Source: an uncultured Bacilli bacterium (GTDB lineage: Bacteria > Bacillota_I > Bacilli_A > RF39 > UBA660). Taken from it: DNA of 64,000 nt. The notes below the pieces were generated by a model. The model worked only from the letters and a program-made list of their open reading frames with translations, made no database searches and was not told the DNA's origin. Of the stretch, positions 1-13,175 are shown one piece after another; the stretch's first letter is position 1, and each line of letters starts with the position of its first letter. Location of the stretch: NCBI GenBank assembly GCA_944358435.1, contig CALVRD010000001.1, positions 7,977-71,976 of the forward strand, in the 5' to 3' direction. A program made the position numbers and the translations under genes.

Positions 1-47
1 ACTGTAACAGTATCTCCAACATAGACATTTTTATATTTAAAGGTCAT
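1..47 (-). CDS. 5' end of a gene running off the window (N-term MTFKYKNVYVGDTVT...), possibly the next spoVA cistron
   Basis: ATG at 45-47 (minus) preceded by a GGAGG RBS at ~52-59; only 15 codons visible. Confidence 0.25.
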   Translation of the reverse strand, partial: MTFKYKNVYVGDTVT

Positions 48-484
48 AATCCGCCTCCAATAAAGTATCTAATCATTCCGAAAAACCAAGCCGCAACAAC
101 TCCATACAAAATTACTGACCCAGCAAGCTTAAATATATTTGATCCAATCCCATATATCGGTCCCTCTTTTCGATAATCTAAAGCAGCACTAGTCATCGAA
201 TGAGCAAATCCAGTAATTGGTATTAATAATCCACACCTAAATTTAGAAACTAACTTATCAAAAAAACCTAAAGCTGTAGCTAAACTAGCAATAAAAATTA
301 AAATTACACTCATAAACACTTGGGCATCAGCCCTAGACATATGAACAATTCCACATAGTACTTCTATAATCCCTTCCCCTAAAAGTCCAACTACTCCACC
401 AGAAATAAAAGCAACTACTGCATTTTTTACTTTAGTTTCCTTCGGTTTATGGAAATCAGCAATCCTATTATACAAATTATCTTT
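44..484 (-). CDS. spoVAC: Stage V sporulation protein AC (SpoVAC)
   Basis: ~150 aa polytopic protein; ...ITGFAHSMTSAALDYRKEG...GSVILYGVVAAWFFGMIRYF matches the SpoVAC family. The ORF-track start looks extended; the likely start is MKDNLY. Confidence 0.7.
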   Translation of the reverse strand, partial: KDNLYNRIADFHKPKETKVKNAVVAFISGGVVGLLGEGIIEVLCGIVHMSRADAQVFMSVILIFIASLATALGFFDKLVSKFRCGLLIPITGFAHSMTSAALDYRKEGPIYGIGSNIFKLAGSVILYGVVAAWFFGMIRYFIGGGL

Positions 485-570
485 CATTTTAATCACCATT
501 ACTAGTATCAACCAAATATTTTTTTTCATACAAAAAAACTTAAGAAAATTTAAAATAAAAATTCTTAAGT

Positions 571-1209
571 TTAAAGTACAGATTTTAATTTTTCTAAAAT
601 TTTTCCTTCTTTTCGTGACACTTGAGCCTGACTCATGCCAAGTTCCCTACTAGCTTCACTCTGAGTCAAATCATCATAATATCTAGCAGTAATAAGCATT
701 TTCTCTTCTGGCGATAATTCCTCTAAAGCAACTCTTAAATCTAAAATTTCTGAATTCATTTCCGTATCTGTTGTCATAATAGAATTATAAAATTCCGAAC
801 TATCTTCATCTGCTACATAATCTAAACTTCTAATATCTAAAGCAGCAACTCGTGCTTCTTCAATTTTTTCTTCATCTATTTCTAAAAATAAAGATAATTC
901 CGTAGTTGTTGGCTCACGTCCTAAAGATTGACTCATTTTCTCACTTGCTCTATCTACAGCTTGATTAATTTTAACTAAATCATTACTTACTTTTACTAAA
1001 TTACTTTCTCTAACATACTTTTTTACTTCACCTAAAACATAATAATAGGCATAAGTTGAAAATTTAGTATCCTGACTATTATCAAAATGTCGATATGCAT
1101 TAATTAATCCTAACATTCCAACTTGATATAAATCATCCCTATCAAAATATTTAGTATATTTACTAATAATTCCATATACTAAACCCTCATAATTTAGTAA
1201 CTCGTCCAT
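571..1209 (-). CDS. sigF: Sporulation-type group 3 sigma factor (SigF/SigG/SigB clade), short N-terminus
   Basis: Region 2 (DLYQVGMLGLINAYRHFD...FSTYA) and region 4 HTH (DLTQSEASRELGMSQAQVSRKEGKILEKL) resemble SigF; it sits between a STAS protein and spoVAC as in spoIIA-spoVA loci. Confidence 0.65.
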   Translation of the reverse strand: MDELLNYEGLVYGIISKYTKYFDRDDLYQVGMLGLINAYRHFDNSQDTKFSTYAYYYVLGEVKKYVRESNLVKVSNDLVKINQAVDRASEKMSQSLGREPTTTELSLFLEIDEEKIEEARVAALDIRSLDYVADEDSSEFYNSIMTTDTEMNSEILDLRVALEELSPEEKMLITARYYDDLTQSEASRELGMSQAQVSRKEGKILEKLKSVL

Positions 1210-1220
1210 TATCCTCCCCT

Positions 1221-1550
1221 CTATATATTAAAATATTTAAATGCCTCCACTTCACAATTAACATAAGCTAATCTTTTATCTTTAAAAGTACTTTTTATTC
1301 CACACATAACTACTTTTCCACAACATAAAAATATTTCATACAATTTATTTTGGATTTTATGAAAAACACTATTCTCAATATTAAAAATATCAACAAAACT
1401 AATTACATAAAAATTCATTCCTAAGTTATAAAGTAAATTATTTAATTCTAAATCTAAATCATCAAAAGTTCTATTAGTTAAATCACCCTCCAATCTAATA
1501 AATGTAATTCCTCTTACTACATCAACTTGAACATTTAGCATGAACTTCAC
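1221..1550 (-). CDS. STAS-domain anti-sigma-factor antagonist-like protein (SpoIIAA-like), phospho-Ser position not conserved
   Basis: Aligns to SpoIIAA (IRLEGDL ~ IRLTGEL; SFVD ~ SFMD; VVMCGI ~ VVCAI), but the DSSG phosphorylation motif is replaced by DIFN. Confidence 0.5.
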   Translation of the reverse strand: MKFMLNVQVDVVRGITFIRLEGDLTNRTFDDLDLELNNLLYNLGMNFYVISFVDIFNIENSVFHKIQNKLYEIFLCCGKVVMCGIKSTFKDKRLAYVNCEVEAFKYFNI

Positions 1551-1642
1551 CTCTCACTTAAAATATAAAAAATATTATTTATTTTTTAAAGTAATTCGAC
1601 AAAACATATCAAAAGATTCGTTAGCTAAAAACCGACAAAAAA

Positions 1643-1681
1643 AGACTAATATCTTCCTATGCAAATAATTAGTCTTTATAT
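1643..1681 (-). terminator. Rho-independent terminator downstream of the 180-aa ORF
   Basis: Inverted repeat AAGACTAAT...ATTAGTCTT followed by a T-run on the minus strand. Confidence 0.35.
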
Positions 1682-1699
1682 TTTTATTATTTATAATAA

Positions 1700-2242
1700 T
1701 TAATGTTTATTAATTAATCTTTTTACAAATATTTTTTCGCCCTTAGCTAAATCTGCTTCTAGTAGATCATCAAATTTCTTTTCAACTTCTTCTATTGTTA
1801 CATGATAAGCCCTCTTAAAAAATAAAGCTTTATTTATATCTTCTTCAACATAAAAATGACTAAGACCTAAAGCTACATAATCAGATAATACTTTTCTATA
1901 ATCATCAAATTCAGCACTACCAGAAACAAATGGAAGGTTTTCACCAATAATACGCATATTATAATCATCAATATTTAAAGCTACTATTTCTTCTTTTTCT
2001 ATCGCATAATCATCTGGATATACTGGCCATTGACAATTATCTTTATACCAAGCATCATTAACTCTATTAATGACTTTGCTGTATATAACACCATCATCAT
2101 CATAGAATTTTCCACAATAGAATACAAGATCTTGAACTGGGCAAACTTCATATGTCATAGAAAAACTACCATCATCATTTATTCTTCTAACATAAGAATT
2201 AGAATTTGAAAATAACCCTCTTATATCATCAAATGTATCCAT
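1700..2242 (-). CDS. Hypothetical acidic cytoplasmic protein (180 aa)
   Basis: Long ORF with AT-rich codon usage consistent with its neighbours; no recognisable motif. Confidence 0.3.
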   Translation of the reverse strand: MDTFDDIRGLFSNSNSYVRRINDDGSFSMTYEVCPVQDLVFYCGKFYDDDGVIYSKVINRVNDAWYKDNCQWPVYPDDYAIEKEEIVALNIDDYNMRIIGENLPFVSGSAEFDDYRKVLSDYVALGLSHFYVEEDINKALFFKRAYHVTIEEVEKKFDDLLEADLAKGEKIFVKRLINKH

Positions 2243-2482
2243 GTGATTACGATCATATTGGCAATTAAAAGATTGTTTTGGCTCCTCCTACTTTTTTGGT
2301 TTAAATAAATTAATTATATTAATTATATTATTTACATTCATAAAATATCCCCGTCTTAAATAATGCAGACATGTTATAACACTTTTTACATAAAAATACA
2401 AGTAAAATTTCAATTCACAACTATTGTATCAATAGAGACTCTATGTATTAATTATCTATTTTATTACACGATCATTTGTACT

Positions 2483-2523
2483 TAAAAGAAAAGACTATTA
2501 ACAAATCTTTTTGTCAATAGTCT
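2483..2523 (-). terminator. Rho-independent terminator after nrdG (locus 1)
   Basis: 8-bp stem AGACTATT/AATAGTCT followed by a T-run on the minus strand. Confidence 0.4.
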
Positions 2524-2541
2524 GAAAGAAAACTAAGTTTC

Positions 2542-3093
2542 TTAAACAAACATATATTCTGGTTTCTTAACTGAAGAACTATAATCCTTATCCTGCATAT
2601 ATTTTTCAACTAAAACAACTCTTGATTGTTCCAAACTTTTTGAAACATCAATAATTCTTTGATTTTTAGAACCTTTAAAGTATATGTCTAAACTTTTTTC
2701 TTCTAGAATGAATTTTCCATCTACTAAAACATCTACATATTCTAATAACTTCTTATGTTTTGAGTTTCTTAACATTTCTTCATATGTAAATCCTGTATAA
2801 CACCAAACATTCATTCCTACTTCATGAGCTGCTTTACATAACTCTATACAAGCATCACTTTGACAAACTGGATCTCCGCCCGATAAAGTAATTCCATCTT
2901 GTCCTTTAAGTTGTTTTATTTCTTCAACAATTTCGCTAACATCTACTAAAGCACCACCATCAAAATCATGTGTTGAAGGATTATGACACCCCTTACAATG
3001 ATGAGGGCAACCTTGTGTCCAAACGACAGTTCTAATACCTTCTCCATCAACAATTGAATCTAGCTGTAGACTAGCAGCTAATCTAATTTTCAT
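2542..3093 (-). CDS. nrdG: Anaerobic ribonucleoside-triphosphate reductase activating protein (radical SAM), locus 1
   Basis: GCPHHCKGCHNP radical-SAM cluster motif typical of NrdG; its ATG overlaps the stop of the upstream small ORF (TAATG). Confidence 0.85.
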   Translation of the reverse strand: MKIRLAASLQLDSIVDGEGIRTVVWTQGCPHHCKGCHNPSTHDFDGGALVDVSEIVEEIKQLKGQDGITLSGGDPVCQSDACIELCKAAHEVGMNVWCYTGFTYEEMLRNSKHKKLLEYVDVLVDGKFILEEKSLDIYFKGSKNQRIIDVSKSLEQSRVVLVEKYMQDKDYSSSVKKPEYMFV

Positions 3094-3257
3094 TATGCTG
3101 CCTTATTTTTAGTTAGTTCTTTATAACCACTATGTTTTACACGGTCTCTTTCTTCAGCTCTTTTACCATTGTTGAAACGACTAACATCTCCTGCTAAATA
3201 ACCTGTAACTCTTCTAATTCTTTCAAATCCTTGTCCTTCTCCTACTAATTTTTCCAT
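3093..3257 (-). CDS. 54-aa stand-alone glycyl-radical-domain peptide (NrdD C-terminal loop RRVTGYL...NNGKRAEERDRVKH), not in the ORF track
   Basis: Hand translation gives MEKLVGEGQGFERIRRVTGYLAGDVSRFNNGKRAEERDRVKHSGYKELTKNKAA. There is a GGAG RBS 10 nt upstream of the ATG. It starts 31 nt after the nrdD stop and ends in a TAATG overlap with nrdG. Confidence 0.55.
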   Translation of the reverse strand: MEKLVGEGQGFERIRRVTGYLAGDVSRFNNGKRAEERDRVKHSGYKELTKNKAA

Positions 3258-3288
3258 AATCTAACATCTCCTTTTTTATCTATTATAT

Positions 3289-5604
3289 TTATCTTCCGCA
3301 GCACTCATGTGCTACAATCTTTTCCATTGGAACTCCCTCAAATTCATGACGTCCACAGCCTGGGCAAACATCATTAATAACTCCAACATATCCACAAACT
3401 GGATCTCTATCAACAGGATGGTTAATAGCACCATATCCAATTCCAGACTCTTTCATAATACGAATAATGCTTTCAAAGGCATCAACATTGCTAGCAGCAT
3501 CTCCATCTAATTCAATATAAGAAATATGTCCACCATTTGTAAACTCATGATATGGAGCTTCTGTTTTTATCTTATCAACAATACTTATATTATAATAAAC
3601 TGGTACATGGAAAGAATTTGTATAATATTCTCTATCAGTAACTCCTTTAATTTTTCCATAAATTGCTTTATCAATACTTGTAAATCTTCCAGATAATCCT
3701 TCAGCTGGTGTAGCTAAACATGTAAAGTTTAAATTATATTTCTTACAGTTTTCATCACACTTATCACGCATAAATTTAATAATTTCAAGTCCTAATTTTT
3801 GACTTTCCTCACTTTCACCATGATGTTTACCAGTTAAAGCTTTTAAACATTCGGCAAGACCAATAAATCCTGTTGATAATGAACCATGCTTCCATACTTT
3901 TCTTAATCTATCAGTCGGTTTTAGCTTCTCACCATTAGTCCAAACACCTTGTCCTAATAAGAATGGAAAGTTATAACAACGTTTATTACATTGAACTTCA
4001 AATCTTTCAAGTAATTGGTCTCTTACCATATCCATAATTTGTCCAAGTTCTTGACAGAATCCTTCCATGTCAGGTTTTTCTCTTTCTTTTAAAGCAATAC
4101 CATATTTAATACCAAGTCTAGGTAAATTAATAGTTGTAAATGATAAATTACCACGTCCAGTAACAACTTGATTATCAGGAGAAGTAACATCAGCAATTAC
4201 TCTTGTACGACATCCCATATAAGAAATTTCTGTATTAGGATCTCCTTCTTTATAAAATTGTAAGTTAAATGGCGCATCAATAAATGCAAAGTTAGGAAAA
4301 AGTCTTTTAGCCGAAACTTTACAAGCTAATCTAAATAAATCATAGTTAGGATCTTCTTTATTATAGTTAACCCCTTCTTTTACTTTAAATATTGATACTG
4401 GGAATATTGGAGTTTCTCCTTTACCAAGTCCCGCATCTGCTGAAAGCAAGAAATTCTTAACAACCATTCTACCTTCAGGAGATGTATCTGTACCAAAGTT
4501 AACTGATGAGAATGGTACTTGAGCTCCAGCCCTTGAATGCATTGTATTTAAATTATGGATAAATGACTCCATTGCTTGTTGTGTAGCTCTATCAGTTTTT
4601 TGTAAAGCTTTTTCATACCCCTTAGTAAATATTTCTTTTATTCGATCAGATCCTTTTTGGTAATCACTAAAGTCTTCTATATTTATTTCTATACTTTCAA
4701 CTTTATCTATTTCTCGAATAATTCTATCAACATTTACTACTGGTAAAAATCCTTCTAAATCTAAAAAATCATAAATTGTTTGTTTAAATTGTTTCTTAAA
4801 TGTCTTTAAAACTCCTGGTGCTAAATAATAATCTAATGCTGGAACAGCTTGTCCACCATGTTGATCATTTTGATTAGCTTGAATTACTATTGCGGCTAAT
4901 GCAGCATAAGTAGATATATCTTGTGGAGGTCTAACAAACCCATGTCCTGTATCAAACCCATTTTTAAATAATCTTGATAAATCTATTTGACAACAAGTTG
5001 TAGTACCCATTGCTAAGAAATCCATATCATGAATGTGAATAGTACCTTCATCATGCATAGTAGCAAATTCTGGTTTCATTAAATATGCTTTAGAGAATTC
5101 TCTTGAAACAGTCGCTCCATATTGTAACATTGTACCCATTGGACTATTTCCATCAATGTTAGCATTTTCTCTTTTAGCGTCTTCCTCATTTGCTGACTTA
5201 AGTCCTAAATTTTCTAACGATTTTAAAAACTTATGTGTTTTCTTATCATCAAAGAAAGATTGACGAGAAGCATTTCTTCTTTCTCGATATTCAGAGAATG
5301 ATTTATATACATCTTCATAGCCTTTATCTTCAAGTTCTTCCTCGATTAAATCTTGAATTTGTTCAATCTTAAATTTATCTGTATCTTTAGCTTCTTTAGC
5401 AATTCTTTTTAATACTGCTTGATACACTTTTTGTACATCTTTAGAAGTATATTTCCTTTCTTTCTCATCTTCATCAACATCAACTTCTACACTATCAAAA
5501 CCTTTTTTTATTGCTAAAGCAATCTTAGTTTCATCGAAATCAACTTTTTTACCATTTCTTTTAATTACAGTTAAGCCCTCTAACTTATCAATTACTTCAT
5601 TCAT
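3289..5604 (-). CDS. nrdD: Anaerobic ribonucleoside-triphosphate reductase large subunit (locus 1): ATP-cone plus Zn ribbon, but no C-terminal glycyl-radical motif in this polypeptide
   Basis: N-terminal ATP-cone (VIKRNGKKVDFDETKIALAIKKGF), glycyl-radical-enzyme core, C-terminal CGY...CPGCG Zn ribbon. It ends ...HECCGR without an RxxGY loop. Confidence 0.85.
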   Translation of the reverse strand: MNEVIDKLEGLTVIKRNGKKVDFDETKIALAIKKGFDSVEVDVDEDEKERKYTSKDVQKVYQAVLKRIAKEAKDTDKFKIEQIQDLIEEELEDKGYEDVYKSFSEYRERRNASRQSFFDDKKTHKFLKSLENLGLKSANEEDAKRENANIDGNSPMGTMLQYGATVSREFSKAYLMKPEFATMHDEGTIHIHDMDFLAMGTTTCCQIDLSRLFKNGFDTGHGFVRPPQDISTYAALAAIVIQANQNDQHGGQAVPALDYYLAPGVLKTFKKQFKQTIYDFLDLEGFLPVVNVDRIIREIDKVESIEINIEDFSDYQKGSDRIKEIFTKGYEKALQKTDRATQQAMESFIHNLNTMHSRAGAQVPFSSVNFGTDTSPEGRMVVKNFLLSADAGLGKGETPIFPVSIFKVKEGVNYNKEDPNYDLFRLACKVSAKRLFPNFAFIDAPFNLQFYKEGDPNTEISYMGCRTRVIADVTSPDNQVVTGRGNLSFTTINLPRLGIKYGIALKEREKPDMEGFCQELGQIMDMVRDQLLERFEVQCNKRCYNFPFLLGQGVWTNGEKLKPTDRLRKVWKHGSLSTGFIGLAECLKALTGKHHGESEESQKLGLEIIKFMRDKCDENCKKYNLNFTCLATPAEGLSGRFTSIDKAIYGKIKGVTDREYYTNSFHVPVYYNISIVDKIKTEAPYHEFTNGGHISYIELDGDAASNVDAFESIIRIMKESGIGYGAINHPVDRDPVCGYVGVINDVCPGCGRHEFEGVPMEKIVAHECCGR

Positions 5605-5900
5605 ATTTTAACCTCCTCTTAAGTAACTTTCTAAGTTAATTTTAGGTTCATACTAATTAAAAAGCAATACCCAAAAATTGACTTTTTTTACCATTTTTTT
5701 TTATTTGTTGCTATATAAAGAAATTAGTAGAAATTTATTTTTGTTCGATTGACGACAATTTACATTTTTATACATTTTTAAAAAAATAATTTTTAATTTT
5801 TTTGTATTTTTTAAGTTTACTTTTTCAATTTTTCTCTTATTTTTCAATAAACTTGTATTTAAATTTTATAAAAAAATTAAAAAAATTAAAAAATTATTTT

Positions 5901-6371
5901 TTAAAATTTTTTAATTTTTTCATCAGTTGATCCAAATCCACCATTTCTAATTCCATCAGCCATATCATTATCAACTAACAAATATTTTTGGAAAATTACT
6001 TGTCCAATAACATCACCTTTTTTAACTTCAATATCATGGTCACTACAATTAAAATAAGCAAAGTAAAAGTGTCCATCATTTACTGTATTACAATAATAAT
6101 CTGAATCTATTAATCCGACACTATTTGCCATTAAAAAACCTTTTTTGGGTCCACTACTCCTATTAAGTAGAAGATAACATTCATCATCCATACAATAGGC
6201 TTTTAAACCGGTAGGAATTAATGTTGGTTTAATTCCCGGATAATATTTAGGAATAATCACATCTTCTGCTGCTTCAACATCATATCCTGCAGAATGTTTA
6301 GTCTTTCTTACTGGTAAATGTATATCTTTATCTTCATATCCTTTTGCTATTTCAAATCCTCTTTGTCTCAT
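5901..6371 (-). CDS. dut: dUTP diphosphatase
   Basis: SAGYDV motif and C-terminal motif V RNGGFGSTD. Confidence 0.8.
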   Translation of the reverse strand: MRQRGFEIAKGYEDKDIHLPVRKTKHSAGYDVEAAEDVIIPKYYPGIKPTLIPTGLKAYCMDDECYLLLNRSSGPKKGFLMANSVGLIDSDYYCNTVNDGHFYFAYFNCSDHDIEVKKGDVIGQVIFQKYLLVDNDMADGIRNGGFGSTDEKIKKF

Positions 6372-6384
6372 TTTCTTACTCCTC

Positions 6385-6807
6385 CTAATAAATCATATAC
6401 TTATCATTTCCATATAATCGATAAGCCTTTTTATATACTACTACTTTTTCTTTACTATTTTCCAATATCTTTTCAACTTCCCCTATTGCTAAAACTGGAC
6501 TATTATGAAATCCAACCACTATATCAAAAAAGCATTCATTCTCTCCATATGGTCCTTCTCTTATTATATCTCCAAGCATTGCAATAAACATATGACTAAT
6601 ATCCCCTCTATACATCTGCAAAGTCTTACCTTGTTGTAAAGAGTTAAATACATTAGAAAATTGTTGAATTAAAATTTTCTCATCCCCATCAAGCTCGAGT
6701 GGACATAATCCCCTATCTATCTTCTTTAAATATCCACCTCTAACATTATCTTTTCTATCATAAGAAAAATAAAATGTATATCCTTTCAATAATTTTTCTT
6801 CTAACAT
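6385..6807 (-). CDS. Hypothetical protein (140 aa) translationally coupled between nrdG and dut
   Basis: 2-nt gap to nrdG2 and 13-nt gap to dut; no recognisable motif. Confidence 0.3.
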   Translation of the reverse strand: MLEEKLLKGYTFYFSYDRKDNVRGGYLKKIDRGLCPLELDGDEKILIQQFSNVFNSLQQGKTLQMYRGDISHMFIAMLGDIIREGPYGENECFFDIVVGFHNSPVLAIGEVEKILENSKEKVVVYKKAYRLYGNDKYMIY

Positions 6808-6809
6808 AA

Positions 6810-7349
6810 CTATTTCCTCACAATTTTACTATTATCTATATATAATATTATTTTCCTTTTCTTTAAACTTTTCTTAACATCAACTATTCTTTGATTACTA
6901 CTACCAACATAATGTAGTTTTTCATCTGCTAAATGTAGTATAAATCTTCCCTCAAGTAAAACATCAATATTATTAAGAATCCCCTCTAAATTCCTATCAT
7001 TTACAACTTGATTCATTAATTCTTCCCAAGTATATCCCGTATAGCACCAAATAGTTTTACTTGGATATCGCCTCTTTACTTCTAAAATCAACTTATAAAT
7101 TTCTTCACGACTATCTATAAATAGTGGATCTCCTCCCGATAAAGTAAGGCCACTACACCAATCATTTTCTAATTCCGCAAAAATTTCACTTTTAGCACTA
7201 TCATCAAACTCTAAGCCATCATTTTTATCCCAAGTAATTGGATTTTGACAAGCATGACACTTATGAGAACAACCACTAGTCCAAAGTACTACTCGAAGCC
7301 CTTCCCCATTAAGCATATCTGCTTTTGTAATATTATGATACTTCATCAC
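6810..7349 (-). CDS. nrdG: Anaerobic ribonucleoside-triphosphate reductase activating protein, locus 2
   Basis: GCSHKCHACQNP radical-SAM motif; 4-nt overlap with nrdD2. Confidence 0.85.
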   Translation of the reverse strand: MMKYHNITKADMLNGEGLRVVLWTSGCSHKCHACQNPITWDKNDGLEFDDSAKSEIFAELENDWCSGLTLSGGDPLFIDSREEIYKLILEVKRRYPSKTIWCYTGYTWEELMNQVVNDRNLEGILNNIDVLLEGRFILHLADEKLHYVGSSNQRIVDVKKSLKKRKIILYIDNSKIVRK

Positions 7350-9475
7350 ATAGACTTCCTTTCAGAAATTTCAACCATCTTAGCATTATTAAGCATTGTA
7401 TCACCATGAACTCTTGAATATGATAAATAGCCATTCATTCGATCAATTTTCATTAAATCAGTACTACCACACTTTGGACAAACATCCATATCTAACTCTT
7501 CATAACCACAATTATTACAATAAGCAAGTGATAAGTTTATCCCTTCATAAAAACCTTTATCCATAGCCCTTTCAACATATGTGAGCATTGCTTCCGTATT
7601 ATAGTTTAAATTATAACGAACATATTGAATTCTACCACCTTTAAAAAGTTCCCAAAATCTATCTTCTAAATCTTGTTTTTTTATACCACTAATATTTTCC
7701 CAAACTCCACAATGGAAACTATTAGAAACATATTCCCTTGAACTTACACCATCAATTACTCCATACTTTTTTCTAAATTGCTGAACTTGCAATCCACATA
7801 AAGTTTCTGCCGGAGTACCATAAATAGCATATAAAATATGATCTTCTTTTTTAAATTCAAGTATTTTATCATTAATATATTTCATTACTTCAAGAGCAAA
7901 ATTCCCATCTTCGACAATACTTTTACCATTATATAAAACTTGCAATTCATTTAAAGCCGTAATTCCAAAAGAAGCTGTTGCTGATTTTAATACTGGTTCA
8001 ATTGCTTCTTCTGGCTTTAAATTTCCGCCATAAAATCCTCCTTGACAATAAGCAAGTGGATTAGTAGAAGCTTTTCTCTTAGCTAAATAACGATAAGTTC
8101 GAATATGAATCTTCCGAATCATTTCCAAGTAATAATCTAATACTTCATAAAAGTCTTTTTGTTCTTCCCGCGCTTTAGCTAAAATCATAGGTAAATGTAA
8201 TGATATTGCTCCAATATTAAATCTTCCTATATAAACTGGTTTATCTTTATCATCTATAGGTTCCATTCCCCCTCTTTCATACCAAGGAGAAAGAAAAGCA
8301 CGGCAACCCATCGGACTAACAATCCTGCCATATTTCTTATACATTTCCGGCACATATCCTTCACCACTTAAAGATAAGTAATCTGGATACATAGTCTTCT
8401 TACTACATTCAATTGCACATAAAAAACTATCTCTTAAATCTCCTCCATCGCCATGTAATTTCTTATCATATAAAAATACTAACTTAGGAAACAAAGTTGG
8501 ACGTTTATAACCTTTCTTACCTTGTCCTTCCTTATGTACATTTAAAATAGTTTGAGTAATCATCTTCGCAAATTTATTTTTATCAACACCAAAAGTAAAA
8601 GTAACAAAAGGATAATCTCCTCTACTAGAACTTACAGTATTTAATTTATATTCAACACCTTGATATCCCTGTTCACATTCCCTAATAGTTTTACCCCAAG
8701 CATATTTATCGGCCTCATCTGTATACTCTTTACCTTTAATATCTAAATATTCTTTATAATATTTATCATAACTTTTTTGGGCATATTTCTTTAAAATAGT
8801 ATCAACTTCTGGTACAGTAAATCCTCCATATTGCATCGCAGTTGTATTAGTAATAACATCTCCCATAACATTAAAAGCTGTTTGTAATGTCTTAGGCTCC
8901 GTATACCAAATATTACTCATTTCAAACCCATCTTTTAAGACATGAGCCATATCAAATAAACAACAATTCATTGTATCCCGTCTTGCACCCATATCATGTA
9001 TATAAATATAGCCATCCTTACAAGCTTCTATTTCCGAAGCAGTTAAAAAAAATTTCTTATAAAGTTCTTTATTTAAACTATTATATATTAAACATCTCTG
9101 AGTAGTAACTAAAGCACTATCCATATTAGCACAGTCTTTATCACCAATATAAGTAATAACTTGTGCTTTCTTATATACTTTATCAAGAATATGAACGATA
9201 TCTTTTTTATAATCTCGATACTCACGATAACTCTTGGCAACTAATGGATTAACTTGTTCTAATGCCGCCTCAACACAACTATGTATCTGTTCTACCGTTG
9301 GATTAGTAGTCTGCGTTTCTAATAAATCTCTAACAATATTAACTATTTTATCAAGTGCTTTATCAGTTAATTCTATCATAACTCGATCAGCACTAGCACA
9401 TACTGCTTTCTTTATTCTTAAAGGATCAAAATCTTCTAAATAACCATTTCTTTTAACTATTCTTATTTCACTCAT
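7346..9475 (-). CDS. nrdD: Anaerobic ribonucleoside-triphosphate reductase, canonical single-polypeptide form (locus 2)
   Basis: ATP-cone (IVKRNGYLEDFDPLRIKKAV); C-terminal CNNCGY...CPKCG Zn ribbon followed by the glycyl-radical loop IDRMNGYLSY. Confidence 0.85.
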   Translation of the reverse strand: MSEIRIVKRNGYLEDFDPLRIKKAVCASADRVMIELTDKALDKIVNIVRDLLETQTTNPTVEQIHSCVEAALEQVNPLVAKSYREYRDYKKDIVHILDKVYKKAQVITYIGDKDCANMDSALVTTQRCLIYNSLNKELYKKFFLTASEIEACKDGYIYIHDMGARRDTMNCCLFDMAHVLKDGFEMSNIWYTEPKTLQTAFNVMGDVITNTTAMQYGGFTVPEVDTILKKYAQKSYDKYYKEYLDIKGKEYTDEADKYAWGKTIRECEQGYQGVEYKLNTVSSSRGDYPFVTFTFGVDKNKFAKMITQTILNVHKEGQGKKGYKRPTLFPKLVFLYDKKLHGDGGDLRDSFLCAIECSKKTMYPDYLSLSGEGYVPEMYKKYGRIVSPMGCRAFLSPWYERGGMEPIDDKDKPVYIGRFNIGAISLHLPMILAKAREEQKDFYEVLDYYLEMIRKIHIRTYRYLAKRKASTNPLAYCQGGFYGGNLKPEEAIEPVLKSATASFGITALNELQVLYNGKSIVEDGNFALEVMKYINDKILEFKKEDHILYAIYGTPAETLCGLQVQQFRKKYGVIDGVSSREYVSNSFHCGVWENISGIKKQDLEDRFWELFKGGRIQYVRYNLNYNTEAMLTYVERAMDKGFYEGINLSLAYCNNCGYEELDMDVCPKCGSTDLMKIDRMNGYLSYSRVHGDTMLNNAKMVEISERKSM

Positions 9476-9530
9476 AACTATTTCTCCCTATCTTATAAAC
9501 TAAATTTTAACCCAAAAACAAAACATTCAA

Positions 9531-9546
9531 TGTTGCATTTGCAACA
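9531..9546. promoter_or_regulatory. Perfect palindrome TGTTGCA-TT-TGCAACA in the divergent nrdD2 / crp-fnr promoter region
   Basis: 16-bp dyad centred between divergently transcribed genes; candidate operator for the adjacent Crp/Fnr-family regulator. Confidence 0.3.
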
Positions 9547-9589
9547 AAAATAAAAATTAGCTATAATTAAATTATTAAGGAGTGATAAA

Positions 9590-10219
9590 ATGCTTGATAC
9601 AATTACAAATGACAAACTTTTAGACTTTCGAAAAAATTTGTCATACTGTGTAAATGTCCAAAAAAAATCATTTGCTAATAAAGAAGTAATAATTAATAGT
9701 AATCTATCAAAAAAACAAATTGGCTTTATTATATATGGTCAAGCTAATATAATGAAAACTGATATTAATGGTAATACGACTATTTTAAGAGATTTAAAAA
9801 ATAATGATATCTTTTCTAATCTATTCTTTCAAAATTCTGAAGATGAAATCTATATCATAAGTAACAAATCAACAGAAGTATTATTTATTGATTATTATCC
9901 GCTTTTAAAAAGCTGTTCAAAAAACTGTCCTTTTCATAATAATTTAGTCTTATCTTTATATGATTTATTAATAAATGATAATAAAAAACAAAACGAAAAA
10001 ATCGAACTATTATCACAAAAAACAGTCCGACATAAAATACTTTATTTTTTAAAACAAAGAATGAATAAGGATAAAATTTTTAAAGTAACAACATCGTATA
10101 AAGCCATAGCTGAATATATCTCAATAGATCGAAGTAATTTTATGCGTGAATTATCAAAATTAGAAAAAGATAATTTAATTAAAAGAAATAAAGATACTAT
10201 AACTATCTTAGATAAATAG
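9590..10219 (+). CDS. Crp/Fnr-family transcriptional regulator
   Basis: N-terminal cNMP-binding-like beta-barrel region, C-terminal HTH (SYKAIAEYISIDRSNFMRELSKLEKDNLI); RBS AAGGAG upstream. Confidence 0.7.
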   Translation: MLDTITNDKLLDFRKNLSYCVNVQKKSFANKEVIINSNLSKKQIGFIIYGQANIMKTDINGNTTILRDLKNNDIFSNLFFQNSEDEIYIISNKSTEVLFIDYYPLLKSCSKNCPFHNNLVLSLYDLLINDNKKQNEKIELLSQKTVRHKILYFLKQRMNKDKIFKVTTSYKAIAEYISIDRSNFMRELSKLEKDNLIKRNKDTITILDK

Positions 10220-10334
10220 CAAAGTAAAACATTACTCAATATCATTAATAAATATTTTTGTCTCATCAAAATCTAACAGATCAAATGTCTCATAACTTGT
10301 AGATATCAAAATATCAGAATGAGCCAAAATATTT

Positions 10335-10715
10335 TCACCAGTGAATCCTTGTACTACTATATCCATAAACATTAGTAGATCTTAAAATTATTTCAAATTC
10401 ACCTGGAACTAAATCCTTTAAAGATACAACCTTCTTATCAACTTTATTAACTCTACTTACTGGAATGCTTCCACTATCTCTAACAAGTACTCCATGTTTA
10501 TAAATAACATAACTATAACTAATTATCTTACTATCACCACTTGAAGTAATTTCATATGAGAAAGATAGTTTAGTATAATTCTTATCTAATGATAACGTTA
10601 TCTCTGGTCCATTTTCATCATAATCTTCTTTACTAGTTTCATATTTTTGACATTTTAAATACCATCTATAACTATATCCATCTTTTGTATATTTAAAAAT
10701 AGTAACTGAGACCAC
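10335..10715 (-). pseudogene. Possible C-terminal remnant of a larger gene (126-aa ORF; the frame continues upstream through a stop codon)
   Basis: The in-frame upstream sequence ...LPKEIGDFREITLQGL is separated from the ORF by a stop codon; no start context. Confidence 0.25.
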
Positions 10716-11108
10716 AGTACATTTATTTTTACTACGAACAAGAACATCTCCAATATGCTTTCTACTTTATAACCCTTGAAGAGTAATTTCTCTAAAATCA
10801 CCAATTTCTTTTGGTAAAACTCTGGGTAGCCATTACAATATCTTTTTACTGTGTTTAATAATGTTTTTTCTGCTCTATCTAAAACAGTTTCAATACAAAC
10901 AACTGAAACTAAGGAATCAAAGTATTACAATTACCACTAAAAGTTCAACTAAAGAAAAAACCTTATTATTAGTAATACAATCCATCCTAGATATAAAACA
11001 GATTATTCCACATATTATTTATTACTTATATATAATAATATATTATCTAAAAAAGCAAAAAATACACCTAAGCGAAAACCTAGACGTATTAAAATATACA
11101 ATAATTTT

Positions 11109-13175
11109 TTAATCTTCTTTCTTCACAAATTGTATTGGCTTATCCTTTCTTTGATTTAAATATTCTTTAGCAGATACCATTACTACTTTTCCATCAATAA
11201 TACTTGGTTTGTAGCAATCTTCTATTCCTTCATTTTCCAAAGCCAAATTTGATCTTACACGCATCTTTGTAAGTGGAAATGAATTGGTATATGGTCTAAC
11301 TTTATATACAATTTTTTCAGCTAATTCGAAAGCTAACGATTCTTGGCATATTGTCTCAACTCCACATAATAAACTATCTATCCTTTCCTTCCCTGCTTCT
11401 ATTTCTTCCGGATGAAAACCAATATGAGCAACTAAAACATCACTTCTATCTTTTGGCTTAACAACTTCACAAGACATTACTCCATCTTGTTCCATTAATT
11501 TATCTGCAATCATAAAATATGGTACTTTTTGAAAATTTTCTAATCTTATAGCAGAATTATAACTTCCTCTAACTAAAACATTACCATTTTTTAAAACTGC
11601 TCCATAGACTTTACAATCTCCCCAAATTTTTCCTTCATTATCCATTAATTTAAGCTTCTTATTATCATTACCACTAAGATATCCAAGCATTGTACAATCA
11701 GAGTTCACAACTAATAAACCATACTCTTCATAACCACACTCTCCTCCAGCTTCATCTAAAACTGCTAAATCAACAGCTTGCAATGGACTAAGTCCATAAT
11801 TTTCTCTAACACTTTTACCAAAAGAAAACCTTTCATGAAGAGCTTTATAAGGGGTAAAAAATATATTACCATGCTCTAAATCACCAGCACTTACTGAAAG
11901 TTTAGTAGAACCTATTACTAAAGGTAATATCTCACTACCAGCATTAATATTCCTTAAAACATCATTAATATATTTTTCTTCACCTTTAGAAACGTCTTCC
12001 AAAATAGATGAAACAATTACAGCATTAGAAAATCCATATTCCGCAAATTCCGGATTAAGTTCAGCTTGTTTCATTACTTCTATCAAAGTACTACGTGTTG
12101 CAAAAAATATATTAGGTTTATTAATAGCCATACTATATAGTAAAAATTTAGGATTACTAATAGGCTCAAATGCTATCGAATTTCCATGTGCAACTTCATT
12201 AATGATACAAGTAGATAAGTTAGCATTTAAAAAAGTTGGCATATGTGCTAAAGAACGCATACCATCCATTGCTTTTCTATCAAATAAATCTTTATCACTA
12301 TATCTAGCCATAGCAATATAAGACTTATTAGAATGAACTATTGGTAAAATCTTATAAGAATCAACTGGAATCGTATAAGTAATTGTCAATGCAGCATCAA
12401 GCGCATCATCACCAGAGTAAAAAGTTCTTTTAGCATACCCATTATCATGACTATCCCAGTATTCAGAAATATTTAATAGTTCATAATAACTCATTATATC
12501 ACGATCAGTTTTTTTAAATTCTAAAACTCTATCAACAAGTGGACATATTTTTTCATCAAACTTTTCGTACTTATCAAATCCCTCAGTAAGTGAATCAACT
12601 AATGATACAATAACTTTATCTTTAAAGCCAGTTTCCTTAACCAATCCTGCAATCTTACCATATATATCATCAGTACCAATAAATAATTTTTTCAAAGGTG
12701 TTCTCTTAAATATCATTTCAATATAGTCAGTACTAAAATCAGCCCCAATAAAATTAACAATTAATCCACACCTAGAAGCCGCTAATAATAAAACTAAAAC
12801 TTCTGGAGTATTTGACATACACGCAACAATCTGATTGCTACGTTCTAACCCCATCTCATCAAAAGCCTTAGACATTTTATCAACTTCTGCAAATATTTCT
12901 TTAGCAGTCTTAGTATAACCCCTATAATATGTCATAGGTTGATCCATTTGTTTTTCCCATCTACGTTTAATTACCGAATATAAATTACAATCAGTACCAT
13001 CATTAACATCTCTTAAAGCCTGTTTTAATTTTATTGGATTTTTAACGTGTCTTTTTTGTTCAGAAGGTTTCTTATCAGAAAACAAAATACTTCCTTGTCT
13101 ATCAAGATCATAATCGCTCTCTGCTACTTTAATCCCTTTTAAATATAAATCAATATCATAACCATTAATCTTCAT
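11109..13175 (-). CDS. Divergent adenylate-forming (ANL superfamily, acyl-CoA synthetase-like) protein, 688 aa
   Basis: Overall resemblance to AMP-binding enzymes (VACMSNTPEVLVLLLAASRCGLIVNFIG...) but no canonical TSGTTGxPKG P-loop seen. Confidence 0.35.
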   Translation of the reverse strand: MKINGYDIDLYLKGIKVAESDYDLDRQGSILFSDKKPSEQKRHVKNPIKLKQALRDVNDGTDCNLYSVIKRRWEKQMDQPMTYYRGYTKTAKEIFAEVDKMSKAFDEMGLERSNQIVACMSNTPEVLVLLLAASRCGLIVNFIGADFSTDYIEMIFKRTPLKKLFIGTDDIYGKIAGLVKETGFKDKVIVSLVDSLTEGFDKYEKFDEKICPLVDRVLEFKKTDRDIMSYYELLNISEYWDSHDNGYAKRTFYSGDDALDAALTITYTIPVDSYKILPIVHSNKSYIAMARYSDKDLFDRKAMDGMRSLAHMPTFLNANLSTCIINEVAHGNSIAFEPISNPKFLLYSMAINKPNIFFATRSTLIEVMKQAELNPEFAEYGFSNAVIVSSILEDVSKGEEKYINDVLRNINAGSEILPLVIGSTKLSVSAGDLEHGNIFFTPYKALHERFSFGKSVRENYGLSPLQAVDLAVLDEAGGECGYEEYGLLVVNSDCTMLGYLSGNDNKKLKLMDNEGKIWGDCKVYGAVLKNGNVLVRGSYNSAIRLENFQKVPYFMIADKLMEQDGVMSCEVVKPKDRSDVLVAHIGFHPEEIEAGKERIDSLLCGVETICQESLAFELAEKIVYKVRPYTNSFPLTKMRVRSNLALENEGIEDCYKPSIIDGKVVMVSAKEYLNQRKDKPIQFVKKED

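Follow-up and report, generated by a model that had tools for sequence, protein, structure and literature searches.

A putative two-polypeptide class III ribonucleotide reductase with its glycyl-radical loop on a separate 54-residue peptide in gut Bacilli, and related peptide genes in phages

Introduction

Class III ribonucleotide reductases are taught as single-chain α2 enzymes, with the radical glycine on the catalytic chain, NrdD. The subject here is a locus at which that glycine appears to have a chain of its own. In a 64,000-nucleotide stretch of DNA from an uncultured Bacilli bacterium of the RF39 lineage (contig CALVRD010000001.1; the whole of this stretch is the window below), a 771-residue NrdD, NrdD1, ends after its zinc ribbon, and is followed first by a 54-residue open reading frame (ORF) for the glycyl-radical loop (Gly loop), and then by nrdG1, the gene for the radical S-adenosylmethionine (SAM) activase. 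The three genes probably specify a working formate-type class III reductase made from two polypeptides, for which, on the evidence of sequence comparison, we put the probability at about 0.8.

In NrdD from Prevotella copri the glycyl-radical domain comprises residues 676-739, with a structural zinc site, the buried Gly loop, a helix and a tail, and it is mobile, ordering and disordering with the state of the ATP-cone (PMC11226230). The cost of carrying such a radical is that oxygen cleaves the chain of a glycyl-radical enzyme at the radical glycine (PMC12288474). For pyruvate formate-lyase (PFL) there is a small spare part, GrcA (also YfiD), which is activated by the parent enzyme's own activase and can give the loop in trans (PMC8683613, PMC12338860). 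For class III reductases, no description of a loop-less NrdD with a separate Gly-loop peptide, or of an NrdD spare part, was found in the openly searchable literature, which takes in a review on glycyl radical enzymes from 2026.

A loop-less NrdD followed by a separate loop gene

The features on which the argument turns are all on the minus strand and are given here in their order along it (aa, amino acids; nt, nucleotides).

3289..5604, minus: nrdD1, large subunit, 771 aa (ORF translation and profile matches)
3258..3288, minus: spacer of 31 nt between the nrdD1 stop TAA (3291..3289) and the peptide ATG (from the sequence)
3272..3268, minus: Shine-Dalgarno AGGAG inside the 31-nt spacer, 10 nt 5′ of the ATG at 3257
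3093..3257, minus: ORF of the 54-aa Gly-loop peptide, the predicted small subunit (PRK07111 and Pfam NRDD matches)
3203..3201, minus: codon of the radical Gly19 of the 54-aa peptide
2542..3093, minus: nrdG1, radical-SAM activase, 183 aa (TIGR02491, 3.7e-47; Pfam Fer4_12 and Radical_SAM)
2492..2523, minus: terminator-like hairpin and T-run 3′ of nrdG1 (from a consensus scan alone)

Over its core NrdD1 matches NCBIfam PRK07111 (positions 3-715 of 746, 1001 bits against a cut-off of 764), TIGR02487 (562 bits, cut-off 326) and Pfam NRDD (positions 1-533 of 562, 622 bits), with the Pfam ATP-cone also matched, and since the core homology is above the curated cut-offs it is a class III reductase by homology. 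The closest solved structure is that of P. copri NrdD (8p23), the match to which (E-value 3e-172) runs up to ...CPKCGSHHID. Four motifs to which the P. copri work (PMC11226230) gives a part in catalysis align between the two proteins: ENANI at residue 146 (NxN flap), TTTCCQ at 201 (barrel Cys), TPAEG at 632 and the thiyl-radical finger loop, which is of the formate type, MGCR at 463-466 with Cys465. The zinc ribbon has VCGY at 736 and CPGCG at 747.

What comes after the zinc ribbon is a tail of 15 residues (...GVPMEKIVAHECCGR), and the last residues before the TAA read ...CPGCGRHEFEGVPMEKIVAHECCGR (C-terminus ...HECCGR). An earlier note on this DNA had claimed that this 771-residue chain lacks the Gly loop, and translation and profile matches confirm it: there is no RxxGY loop anywhere in the NrdD1 chain, for which the profile match stops at PRK07111 position 715 of 746, and the split stands. 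The loop is found instead in the small ORF, whose translation, MEKLVGEGQGFERIRRVTGYLAGDVSRFNNGKRAEERDRVKHSGYKELTKNKAA, is exactly as that note first gave it. It comprises the RVTG19YL glycyl-radical loop, the C-terminal helix and the tail of a canonical NrdD, matching PRK07111 at positions 710-744 of 746 (E-value 1e-10) and Pfam NRDD (PF13597) at positions 533-562 of 562. The latter is its sole match in a Pfam scan at E ≤ 0.01, in which Gly_radical (PF01228) is not matched. It is because the profile matches of the two ORFs are complementary that NrdD1 is taken to be without a Gly loop of its own. The peptide aligns to P. copri NrdD residues 707-740, IDKLQRITGYLVGTTDRWNSGKLAELHDRVTHIG, which hold the radical Gly711, and from the P. 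copri domain layout it follows that the break in the window falls inside the glycyl-radical domain, between zinc ribbon and Gly loop. The peptide also has an N-terminal extension, M-E-K-x-V-G-E-G, that is not in single-chain NrdDs and is nearly invariant in the bacterial clade described below.

The signals for independent translation that the note had listed are likewise in the sequence. The peptide has its own ribosome-binding site (AGGAG) 10 nt before its ATG in the 31-nt spacer, and its stop overlaps the nrdG1 ATG at base 3093, which is common to both, giving TAATG. NrdG1 itself scores 160 bits against TIGR02491 (cut-off 126). The scan finds no minus-strand terminator between nrdD1 and the small ORF, and with none inside and a hairpin after nrdG1, the three genes look like a single operon. 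There is no Rfam match in 1..12000, spacer included. An intron or intein in the gap was considered and is ruled out, as the gap is 31 nt with no Rfam match, and neither NrdD1 nor the peptide has an intein domain (some relatives do have inteins, elsewhere in NrdD and not at the junction of zinc ribbon and Gly loop).

Conservation of the split in gut Bacilli

An error of sequencing or assembly is ruled out by independent assemblies in which the split is also present. Independent samples (ENA, NCBI GCA_947853195.1, Logan) gave 15 contigs that encode the identical 54-aa protein, always between a 771-775-aa NrdD and a 183-aa NrdG, and the 90%-clustered protein database has more than 120 clusters of 771-772-aa proteins that are 88-90% identical to NrdD1. 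(A search of that database with full-length NrdD1 gives near-identical 771-aa proteins only; the relatives with a loop in cis are seen via a 50%-cluster search.)

A scan of one genome per GTDB species yields 80 loci, all from metagenome bins of uncultured gut Bacilli or 'Tenericutes' (among them Mycoplasma sp. CAG:877, Candidatus Faecimonas gallistercoris and Candidatus Onthousia excrementipullorum), and every one of these species-level genomes has the split. The Gly loop is in a short open frame of 53-74 aa in 80 of 80. The end of the upstream nrdD is readable in 79, in all of which its ORF is open up to the stop (TAA in 51 loci, TAG in 28) and the peptide gene lies between nrdD1 and nrdG1. 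A Shine-Dalgarno sequence (AGGAGG, AGGAG, GGAG or similar) stands 4-12 nt 5′ of the peptide ATG in 79 of the 80, and nrdG starts -11 to +4 nt from the peptide stop in most of the 73 loci in which nrdG was found. The large subunits of the clade are 68-90% identical to the window's NrdD1, and 24 of the first 44 residues of the peptide are invariant. The median ratio of non-synonymous to synonymous substitution rates (dN/dS) for the peptide is 0.13 (2877 pairs, first 44 codons), which indicates that purifying selection acts on it.

A recent inactivating nonsense mutation would make nrdD1 a decaying paralogue and leave the work to NrdD2, an unsplit NrdD encoded upstream, and that there is an intact NrdD2-NrdG2 pair 1.7 kb upstream of nrdD1 is in its favour. 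However, all 80 species-level genomes retrieved have the split, their large subunits being up to 32% different from the window's, the dN/dS of the peptide is about 0.13 with its Shine-Dalgarno sequence and ATG conserved, the catalytic motifs of the window's large subunit are intact, and spacer lengths and frames vary among loci with both ORFs still open. Such decay is highly improbable. The preference of the earlier note for a genuine split over a nonsense mutation is borne out by the retention of stop, Shine-Dalgarno sequence and ATG in related genomes and by the signs of purifying selection.

Neither is it to be expected that ribosomes join the two ORFs into one NrdD chain by readthrough, programmed frameshifting or bypass. 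The ORFs are on the same strand, 10-51 nt apart in the bacterial clade, and there is a precedent in phage T4 gene 60, where a 50-nt gap is bypassed (bioRxiv 10.1101/2022.08.31.505936). But the distance from the nrdD stop to the peptide ATG takes values throughout that range (median 27 nt, 79 loci) and the frame of the second ORF relative to the first is 0, 1 and 2 in 26, 22 and 31 loci respectively, roughly equal numbers that no single mechanism fits. In addition, a strong Shine-Dalgarno sequence and an ATG precede the peptide in 79 of 80 loci, the region has no Rfam structure, and in other systems the peptide gene precedes nrdD, has a terminator-like hairpin between itself and nrdD, or is unlinked to it. 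It is on the variable spacing and frame, combined with a conserved initiation site, that frameshifting, readthrough and bypass are taken to be ruled out, and the chance that recoding operates here is very small.

A search with the peptide gives 1790 hits at E ≤ 0.001, the best 120 of which are all 52-76 aa, and some of the matches occur on hundreds of contigs. In the databases the small proteins have names such as 'hypothetical protein' or 'anaerobic ribonucleoside-triphosphate reductase', and one cluster of 60-aa Gly-loop peptides (P0057) is named 'anti-sigma factor ChrR (cupin superfamily)' by one source, an evident mis-annotation. So small an ORF can readily be overlooked or wrongly named, which gives the large gene a truncated appearance, and automated pipelines may score the reductase as broken.

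Structure model and the origin of the junction

When the two chains are joined end to end and modelled with AlphaFold2, the mean predicted local distance difference test score (pLDDT) is 85.6 and the predicted template modelling score 0.80. Residues 10-44 of the peptide have pLDDT 76-83, and in the peptide ERIRR forms a strand and NGKRAEERD a helix. Model residues 759-777, which are the tail of the large subunit and the first six residues of the peptide, are below 50, the junction being disordered. Foldseek aligns the model with 8p23_B (P. copri, ordered radical domain) over 815 columns with a template modelling (TM) score of 0.82, and with 8p2s_B with a TM score of 0.91. As a consistency check, the joined model is compatible with the canonical NrdD fold; on docking it says nothing independent.

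The best 50%-cluster representative, P0241, is 755 aa long and 60% identical, has its loop in cis (...CPGCGRTEEDVPFERIRRITGYLVG...) and belongs to an ordinary nrdD-nrdG pair on a bacterial contig; a further cis-loop relative, P0242, reads ...CGRKETEGEYGFQRIRRITGYL... at this place. With the junction marked by a dot, these read ...GRTEEDVP·FERIRRITGYL (P0241) and ...GRKETEGEYG·FQRIRRITGYL (P0242). In register with them, the ...EFEGVP·MEKI of the window's large subunit pairs with ...GEGQG·FERI of its peptide, not with the peptide's MEKLV, and across the clade the place of ...VP·FERI is taken by ...GR(H/K)EFE(G/S)VP·(M/L/I)E(K/E/R)(I/V) in the large subunit and likewise by ...VGEGQG·FERI in the peptide. 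The earlier note had paired the MEK(I/L)V of the two ORFs and proposed a local duplication. That pairing is out of register with the cis-loop relatives and falls away; the idea of a duplication is retained as a suggestion. In the correct register the overlap, EGxxΦE(K/R)I, has 4 identities in 9 residues, which on its own is not significant, and the retention of some nine junction residues by both genes is suggestive of a short tandem duplication at the origin of the split.

In the zinc ribbon of NrdD1 only three of the canonical Zn(Cys)4 positions are occupied by Cys, DRDPVCGY...CPGCG as against RCLDCGY...CPKCG in P. copri. That the first zinc Cys was lost as a result of the split is ruled out, for the three-Cys knuckle is also in the closest cis-loop relatives, P0241 and P0242; since they have it in common, the knuckle (DRDPVCG...CPxCG) predates the split. 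New in the split large subunits is the tail of 10-22 residues after CPxCGx. In most loci it closes with two Cys, as CC or CxC, the count of large subunits with at least two Cys within the last 12 residues being 75 of 79. The pair may be a zinc ligand instead of a redox shuttle. A thioredoxin-type shuttle was set aside, NrdD1 and NrdD2 both being of the formate type with MGCR. Some of the Gly-loop peptides also end in CxxC or CC.

Several features of the junction are in keeping with a fixed two-subunit enzyme that arose by neutral gene fission, its peptide permanently bound, conferring no benefit of repair, regulation or exchange, and kept since both halves are indispensable. The split is at a surface linker between zinc ribbon and Gly loop where cis-loop relatives have variable spacers of 4-10 residues; the junction is disordered in the AlphaFold model; a copy of the junction segment is in both halves, as expected from a small duplication; and split yet functional reductases are known, NrdJa/NrdJb (PMC9669993) and Aeh1 NrdA-a/NrdA-b (PMC3653736). 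A permanently bound subunit would, however, leave unexplained the free-standing phage peptide genes described in the next section (69 of 80 loci, with some peptides up to 92% identical to bacterial ones), and the loop-less form is very widespread (62 of 150 representatives). Neutral fission with no further role for the peptide is rather unlikely.

Distant NrdDs and viral contigs

The 150 nearest NrdD cluster representatives (50% clusters) were sorted with a hidden Markov model (HMM) of the peptide. A cis Gly loop is present in 55 of them, 33 are fragments, and 62 end after the zinc ribbon without a Gly loop, a figure that is an upper bound as a few representatives have a divergent ...KIKGY...EEADR... 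tail that is maybe a variant loop. The loop-less set includes 44 proteins longer than 850 aa, which are intein-bearing. Strikingly many among P0243-P0300 are 900-1800 aa long and match in two to four stretches, which means that they carry one or more inteins, in some with HNH endonuclease domains (L094). P0252, P0253, P0255, P0256, P0262, P0285 and P0331 end ...MW(N/Q)KIKGYANxGNAxxCGxCGNP(D/E)EEADR..., which the peptide HMM does not detect. This KIKGY tail of intein-bearing NrdDs resembles a cis Gly loop that has diverged and has a Cys pair inserted in it.

The gene contexts of five loop-less representatives (L091, L092, L094, L095 and L096) were read. The phage-like contig L094, which also has genes for an HNH endonuclease and an amidase, shows a 51-aa Gly-loop ORF 2 nt after an intein-bearing nrdD, and on L096 a 54-aa Gly-loop ORF is upstream of nrdD with a terminator-like hairpin between them. 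Around the nrdD genes of the other three (L091 2501-4894, P0279; L092 2501-4789, P0265, GCA_900108415.1; L095 2501-5233, P0243) neither a peptide gene nor nrdG is found within 2.5 kb, and their NrdD homologues have long unrelated tails after the zinc ribbon.

A scan of IMG/VR with the peptide alignment gives 562 relatives, and the best 68 motif-bearing loci are made up of 66 free-standing ORFs (median 54 aa) and 2 single-chain NrdDs. Searched by tblastn for NrdD1 and NrdG1 in flanks of up to 10 kb on each side, 69 of 80 viral loci show no match; about 20 of the viral contigs were read nearly whole, and as they are mostly incomplete genomes a distant nrdD is possible for some. The large subunit adjoins the peptide gene, on either side, in 10 of the 80, in one of them with nrdG too. 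The peptide gene is upstream of nrdD in L096, L190 and L230, and is followed by nrdG in L205. For some viral peptides the identity to bacterial ones reaches 92% (L177 versus L055). Among annotated phage genomes (INPHARED) there are only 17 hits, mostly to unannotated faecal fragments, so that no named phage can be given. Examples of free-standing viral peptide genes (IMG/VR loci L097-L254) are the following.

L177, 604-741: free-standing peptide gene
L179, 6607-6735: free-standing peptide gene, with RusA, terminase small subunit and DNA invertase as neighbours (PHROGs scan)
L161, 3471-3629: free-standing peptide gene; neighbours resemble a HicA/HicB pair (by eye only)
L104, 3495-3647: free-standing peptide gene; a neighbour resembles a resolvase (by eye only)

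Going by these comparisons, at least 80 species of gut bacteria and many phages have kept the split form. Free-standing phage copies without a nearby nrdD suggest that the peptide can work with a large subunit whose gene is at another place. Such genes may be a minimal auxiliary metabolic gene, and if the two-polypeptide reading holds they point to a new and very small class of these.

The same phage genes would also be of use, without a neighbouring large subunit, if the peptide were a spare part or modulator for some other enzyme, for instance a single-chain NrdD cleaved by oxygen, with NrdD1 doing something radical-independent such as nucleotide sensing through its ATP-cone; that some loop-less NrdD homologues have no nearby peptide gene is in line with this too. 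The window has a single-chain NrdD to consider. NrdD2 (7346..9475) keeps its loop in cis, as the earlier note had said, matching TIGR02487 over its full length with ...IDRMNGYLSY... at the loop. But that loop, IDRMNGYLSYSRVHGD, is very different from the peptide, which is of the NrdD1 (PRK07111) type. Moreover, in 79 of 79 bacterial loci with a readable junction the peptide gene has nrdD1 on one side and nrdG1 on the other, and the window's NrdD1 retains all the residues on which radical chemistry depends, among them MGCR, TPAEG, the NxN flap and the barrel Cys, which is unexpected for a non-catalytic protein. Service to another enzyme is therefore improbable.

Proposed mechanism

The anatomy of the locus, the complementary homology, the conservation, the selection on the peptide, its independent initiation, the autonomy of its gene, the intact catalytic motifs of the window's large subunit and the varied gene orders in phage contigs, all of them read from sequence, are the ground for the following scheme, in which nrdD1, the 54-aa ORF and nrdG1 work as one two-polypeptide reductase. 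The three genes would be co-transcribed, the peptide translated from its own ribosome-binding site and start codon, and NrdG1 made by translational coupling directly after it. The ATP-cone, the sites for substrate and effectors, the zinc ribbon and the barrel, with Cys465 for the thiyl radical, would come from the large subunit, which would assemble non-covalently with the peptide into a canonical active site. NrdG1 would abstract hydrogen from Gly19 of the peptide, either free or bound. The Gly19 loop would then stand in the barrel beside Cys465, as Gly711 does in P. copri, and start each turnover, with catalysis afterwards as in formate-type NrdDs. That a radical domain could be detachable is made plausible by the known mobility of the radical domain of P. 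copri NrdD.

It is the established cleavage by oxygen at the radical glycine that leads to the proposal of an advantage in repair. After such cleavage the cell would swap only the 6-kDa, 54-residue peptide, and whether it does so is a matter of roughly even odds.

Several points weigh against the two-polypeptide scheme. The input for AlphaFold was a covalent join, with cis-loop homologues in the alignment, and the model is thus not independent evidence of docking. A loop-less NrdD is not always visibly paired with a peptide gene (L091, L092, L095). All the genomes are metagenome assemblies of uncultured organisms. The unsplit NrdD2-NrdG2 at the same locus could cover the need, and nrdD1 is not demonstrably essential.

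A broader proposal is that the peptide is a diffusible, exchangeable radical cofactor, armed by NrdG, fitting any compatible loop-less NrdD and replaced after oxygen cleavage. It might also be released in the course of ATP-cone and deoxyadenosine triphosphate (dATP) regulation, phages would carry its gene alone to re-arm or take over the host's anaerobic supply of deoxynucleoside triphosphates, and a large share of the NrdD subfamily (62 of 150 representatives) would work in this way. This is put forward tentatively, and the odds are somewhat against it.

If the two-polypeptide scheme is right, the single-chain view of the textbooks has to be qualified: a conserved and widespread form of class III reductase keeps its radical on a separate 6-kDa peptide, and strict anaerobes could limit the cost of oxygen damage by replacing 54 residues rather than 771. 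The peptide would be a natural minimal NrdG substrate that can be synthesised and isotope-labelled, making radical installation, docking and coupling to the ATP-cone testable. A split class III reductase of this kind should be of high interest to both the reductase and the glycyl-radical fields.

Neighbouring genes

On the minus strand of the window the gene order is nrdD2, nrdG2, a 140-aa ORF, dut, nrdD1, the 54-aa ORF and nrdG1. The remaining features are these.

7346..9475, minus: nrdD2, unsplit paralogue, 709 aa, Gly loop in cis (TIGR02487 match)
6810..7349, minus: nrdG2
6385..6807, minus: 140-aa ORF between nrdG2 and dut, no Pfam match
5901..6371, minus: dut, 5′ of nrdD1
9590-10219, plus: Crp/Fnr-type regulator (cNMP_binding and HTH_Crp_2), divergent from nrdD2
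44-1550, minus: sporulation genes, a sigma-70-family factor (regions 2-4) and the SpoVAC and SpoVAD families (called-gene annotation of related contigs)

There are thus two complete class III systems in tandem, of different subfamilies, NrdD2 being E. coli-like (TIGR02487/PRK09263) and NrdD1 PRK07111-like. The order nrdD2-nrdG2-140-aa ORF-dut-nrdD1 is kept in related contigs (L001-L010), and the contexts of two peptide-search matches have the same order, including nrdD2-nrdG2-dut upstream. The Crp/Fnr-type regulator is a candidate for an oxygen- or redox-responsive regulator of the reductase cluster. Inspection by eye gave no convincing NrdR boxes 5′ of nrdD1, and a promoter scan there found no more sites than in shuffled sequence. 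No Pfam family matches the ORFs at 1221..1550 (109 aa) or 1700..2242 (180 aa). Bins of the source lineage are often labelled Tenericutes or Mycoplasma.

Comparison with known systems

The single-chain NrdDs with their NrdG (P. copri 8P23, T4 1H7A and E. coli) share with the window's system the domain order, which is ATP-cone, NxN flap, ten-stranded barrel with MGCR, zinc ribbon, RxTGYL and C-terminal helix, and the adjacent nrdG. The difference is that here the chain is broken between zinc ribbon and Gly loop, with a tail of 10-22 residues added to the one part and a MEKxVGEG head to the other.

GrcA is alike in being a small free-standing carrier of a glycyl-radical loop, and the free-standing phage peptides parallel it. 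However, the two have no detectable homology, the peptide being Pfam NRDD (PF13597) and the GrcA family Gly_radical (PF01228) with the motif RVxG[FWY]. GrcA (127 aa) is a back-up after damage for a PFL that has its own loop, whereas here the large subunit is loop-less and the peptide would be obligatory. A GrcA-like exchange by the NrdD peptide may be supposed by analogy, with indirect support from the free-standing phage copies that have no large subunit nearby.

Catalytic subunits in two genes that are nonetheless functional are known in class II, from NrdJa/NrdJb of Pseudomonas aeruginosa, and in class Ia, from NrdA-a/NrdA-b of Aeromonas phage Aeh1. The NrdJ split sets a C-terminal zinc-finger or IscU-like domain apart from the barrel, and the Aeh1 NrdA cut is within the barrel beside a homing endonuclease; neither of them detaches the radical-bearing element. 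In the gap here there is no mobile element. Phage nrdD genes in pieces are also known (the T4 I-TevII intron, Lactococcus phage 949, Clostridium phage c-st and Aeromonas phage phiAS4; PMC3653736), and many of the loop-less NrdD relatives carry inteins as phage nrdDs do. In those phages the pieces are introns or inteins spliced to give one chain, or reflect unexplained fragmentation, whereas the 10-51-nt spacers here are too short for either intron or intein.

Class I reductases (α2β2) resemble the proposed system in having a stable radical on a chain apart from the catalytic barrel. Their β chain is a ferritin-like metalloprotein with a tyrosyl or metal-centred oxidant and transfer over a long distance, whereas here a loop on a 6-kDa peptide would insert into the barrel itself, its radical made by an external radical-SAM enzyme.

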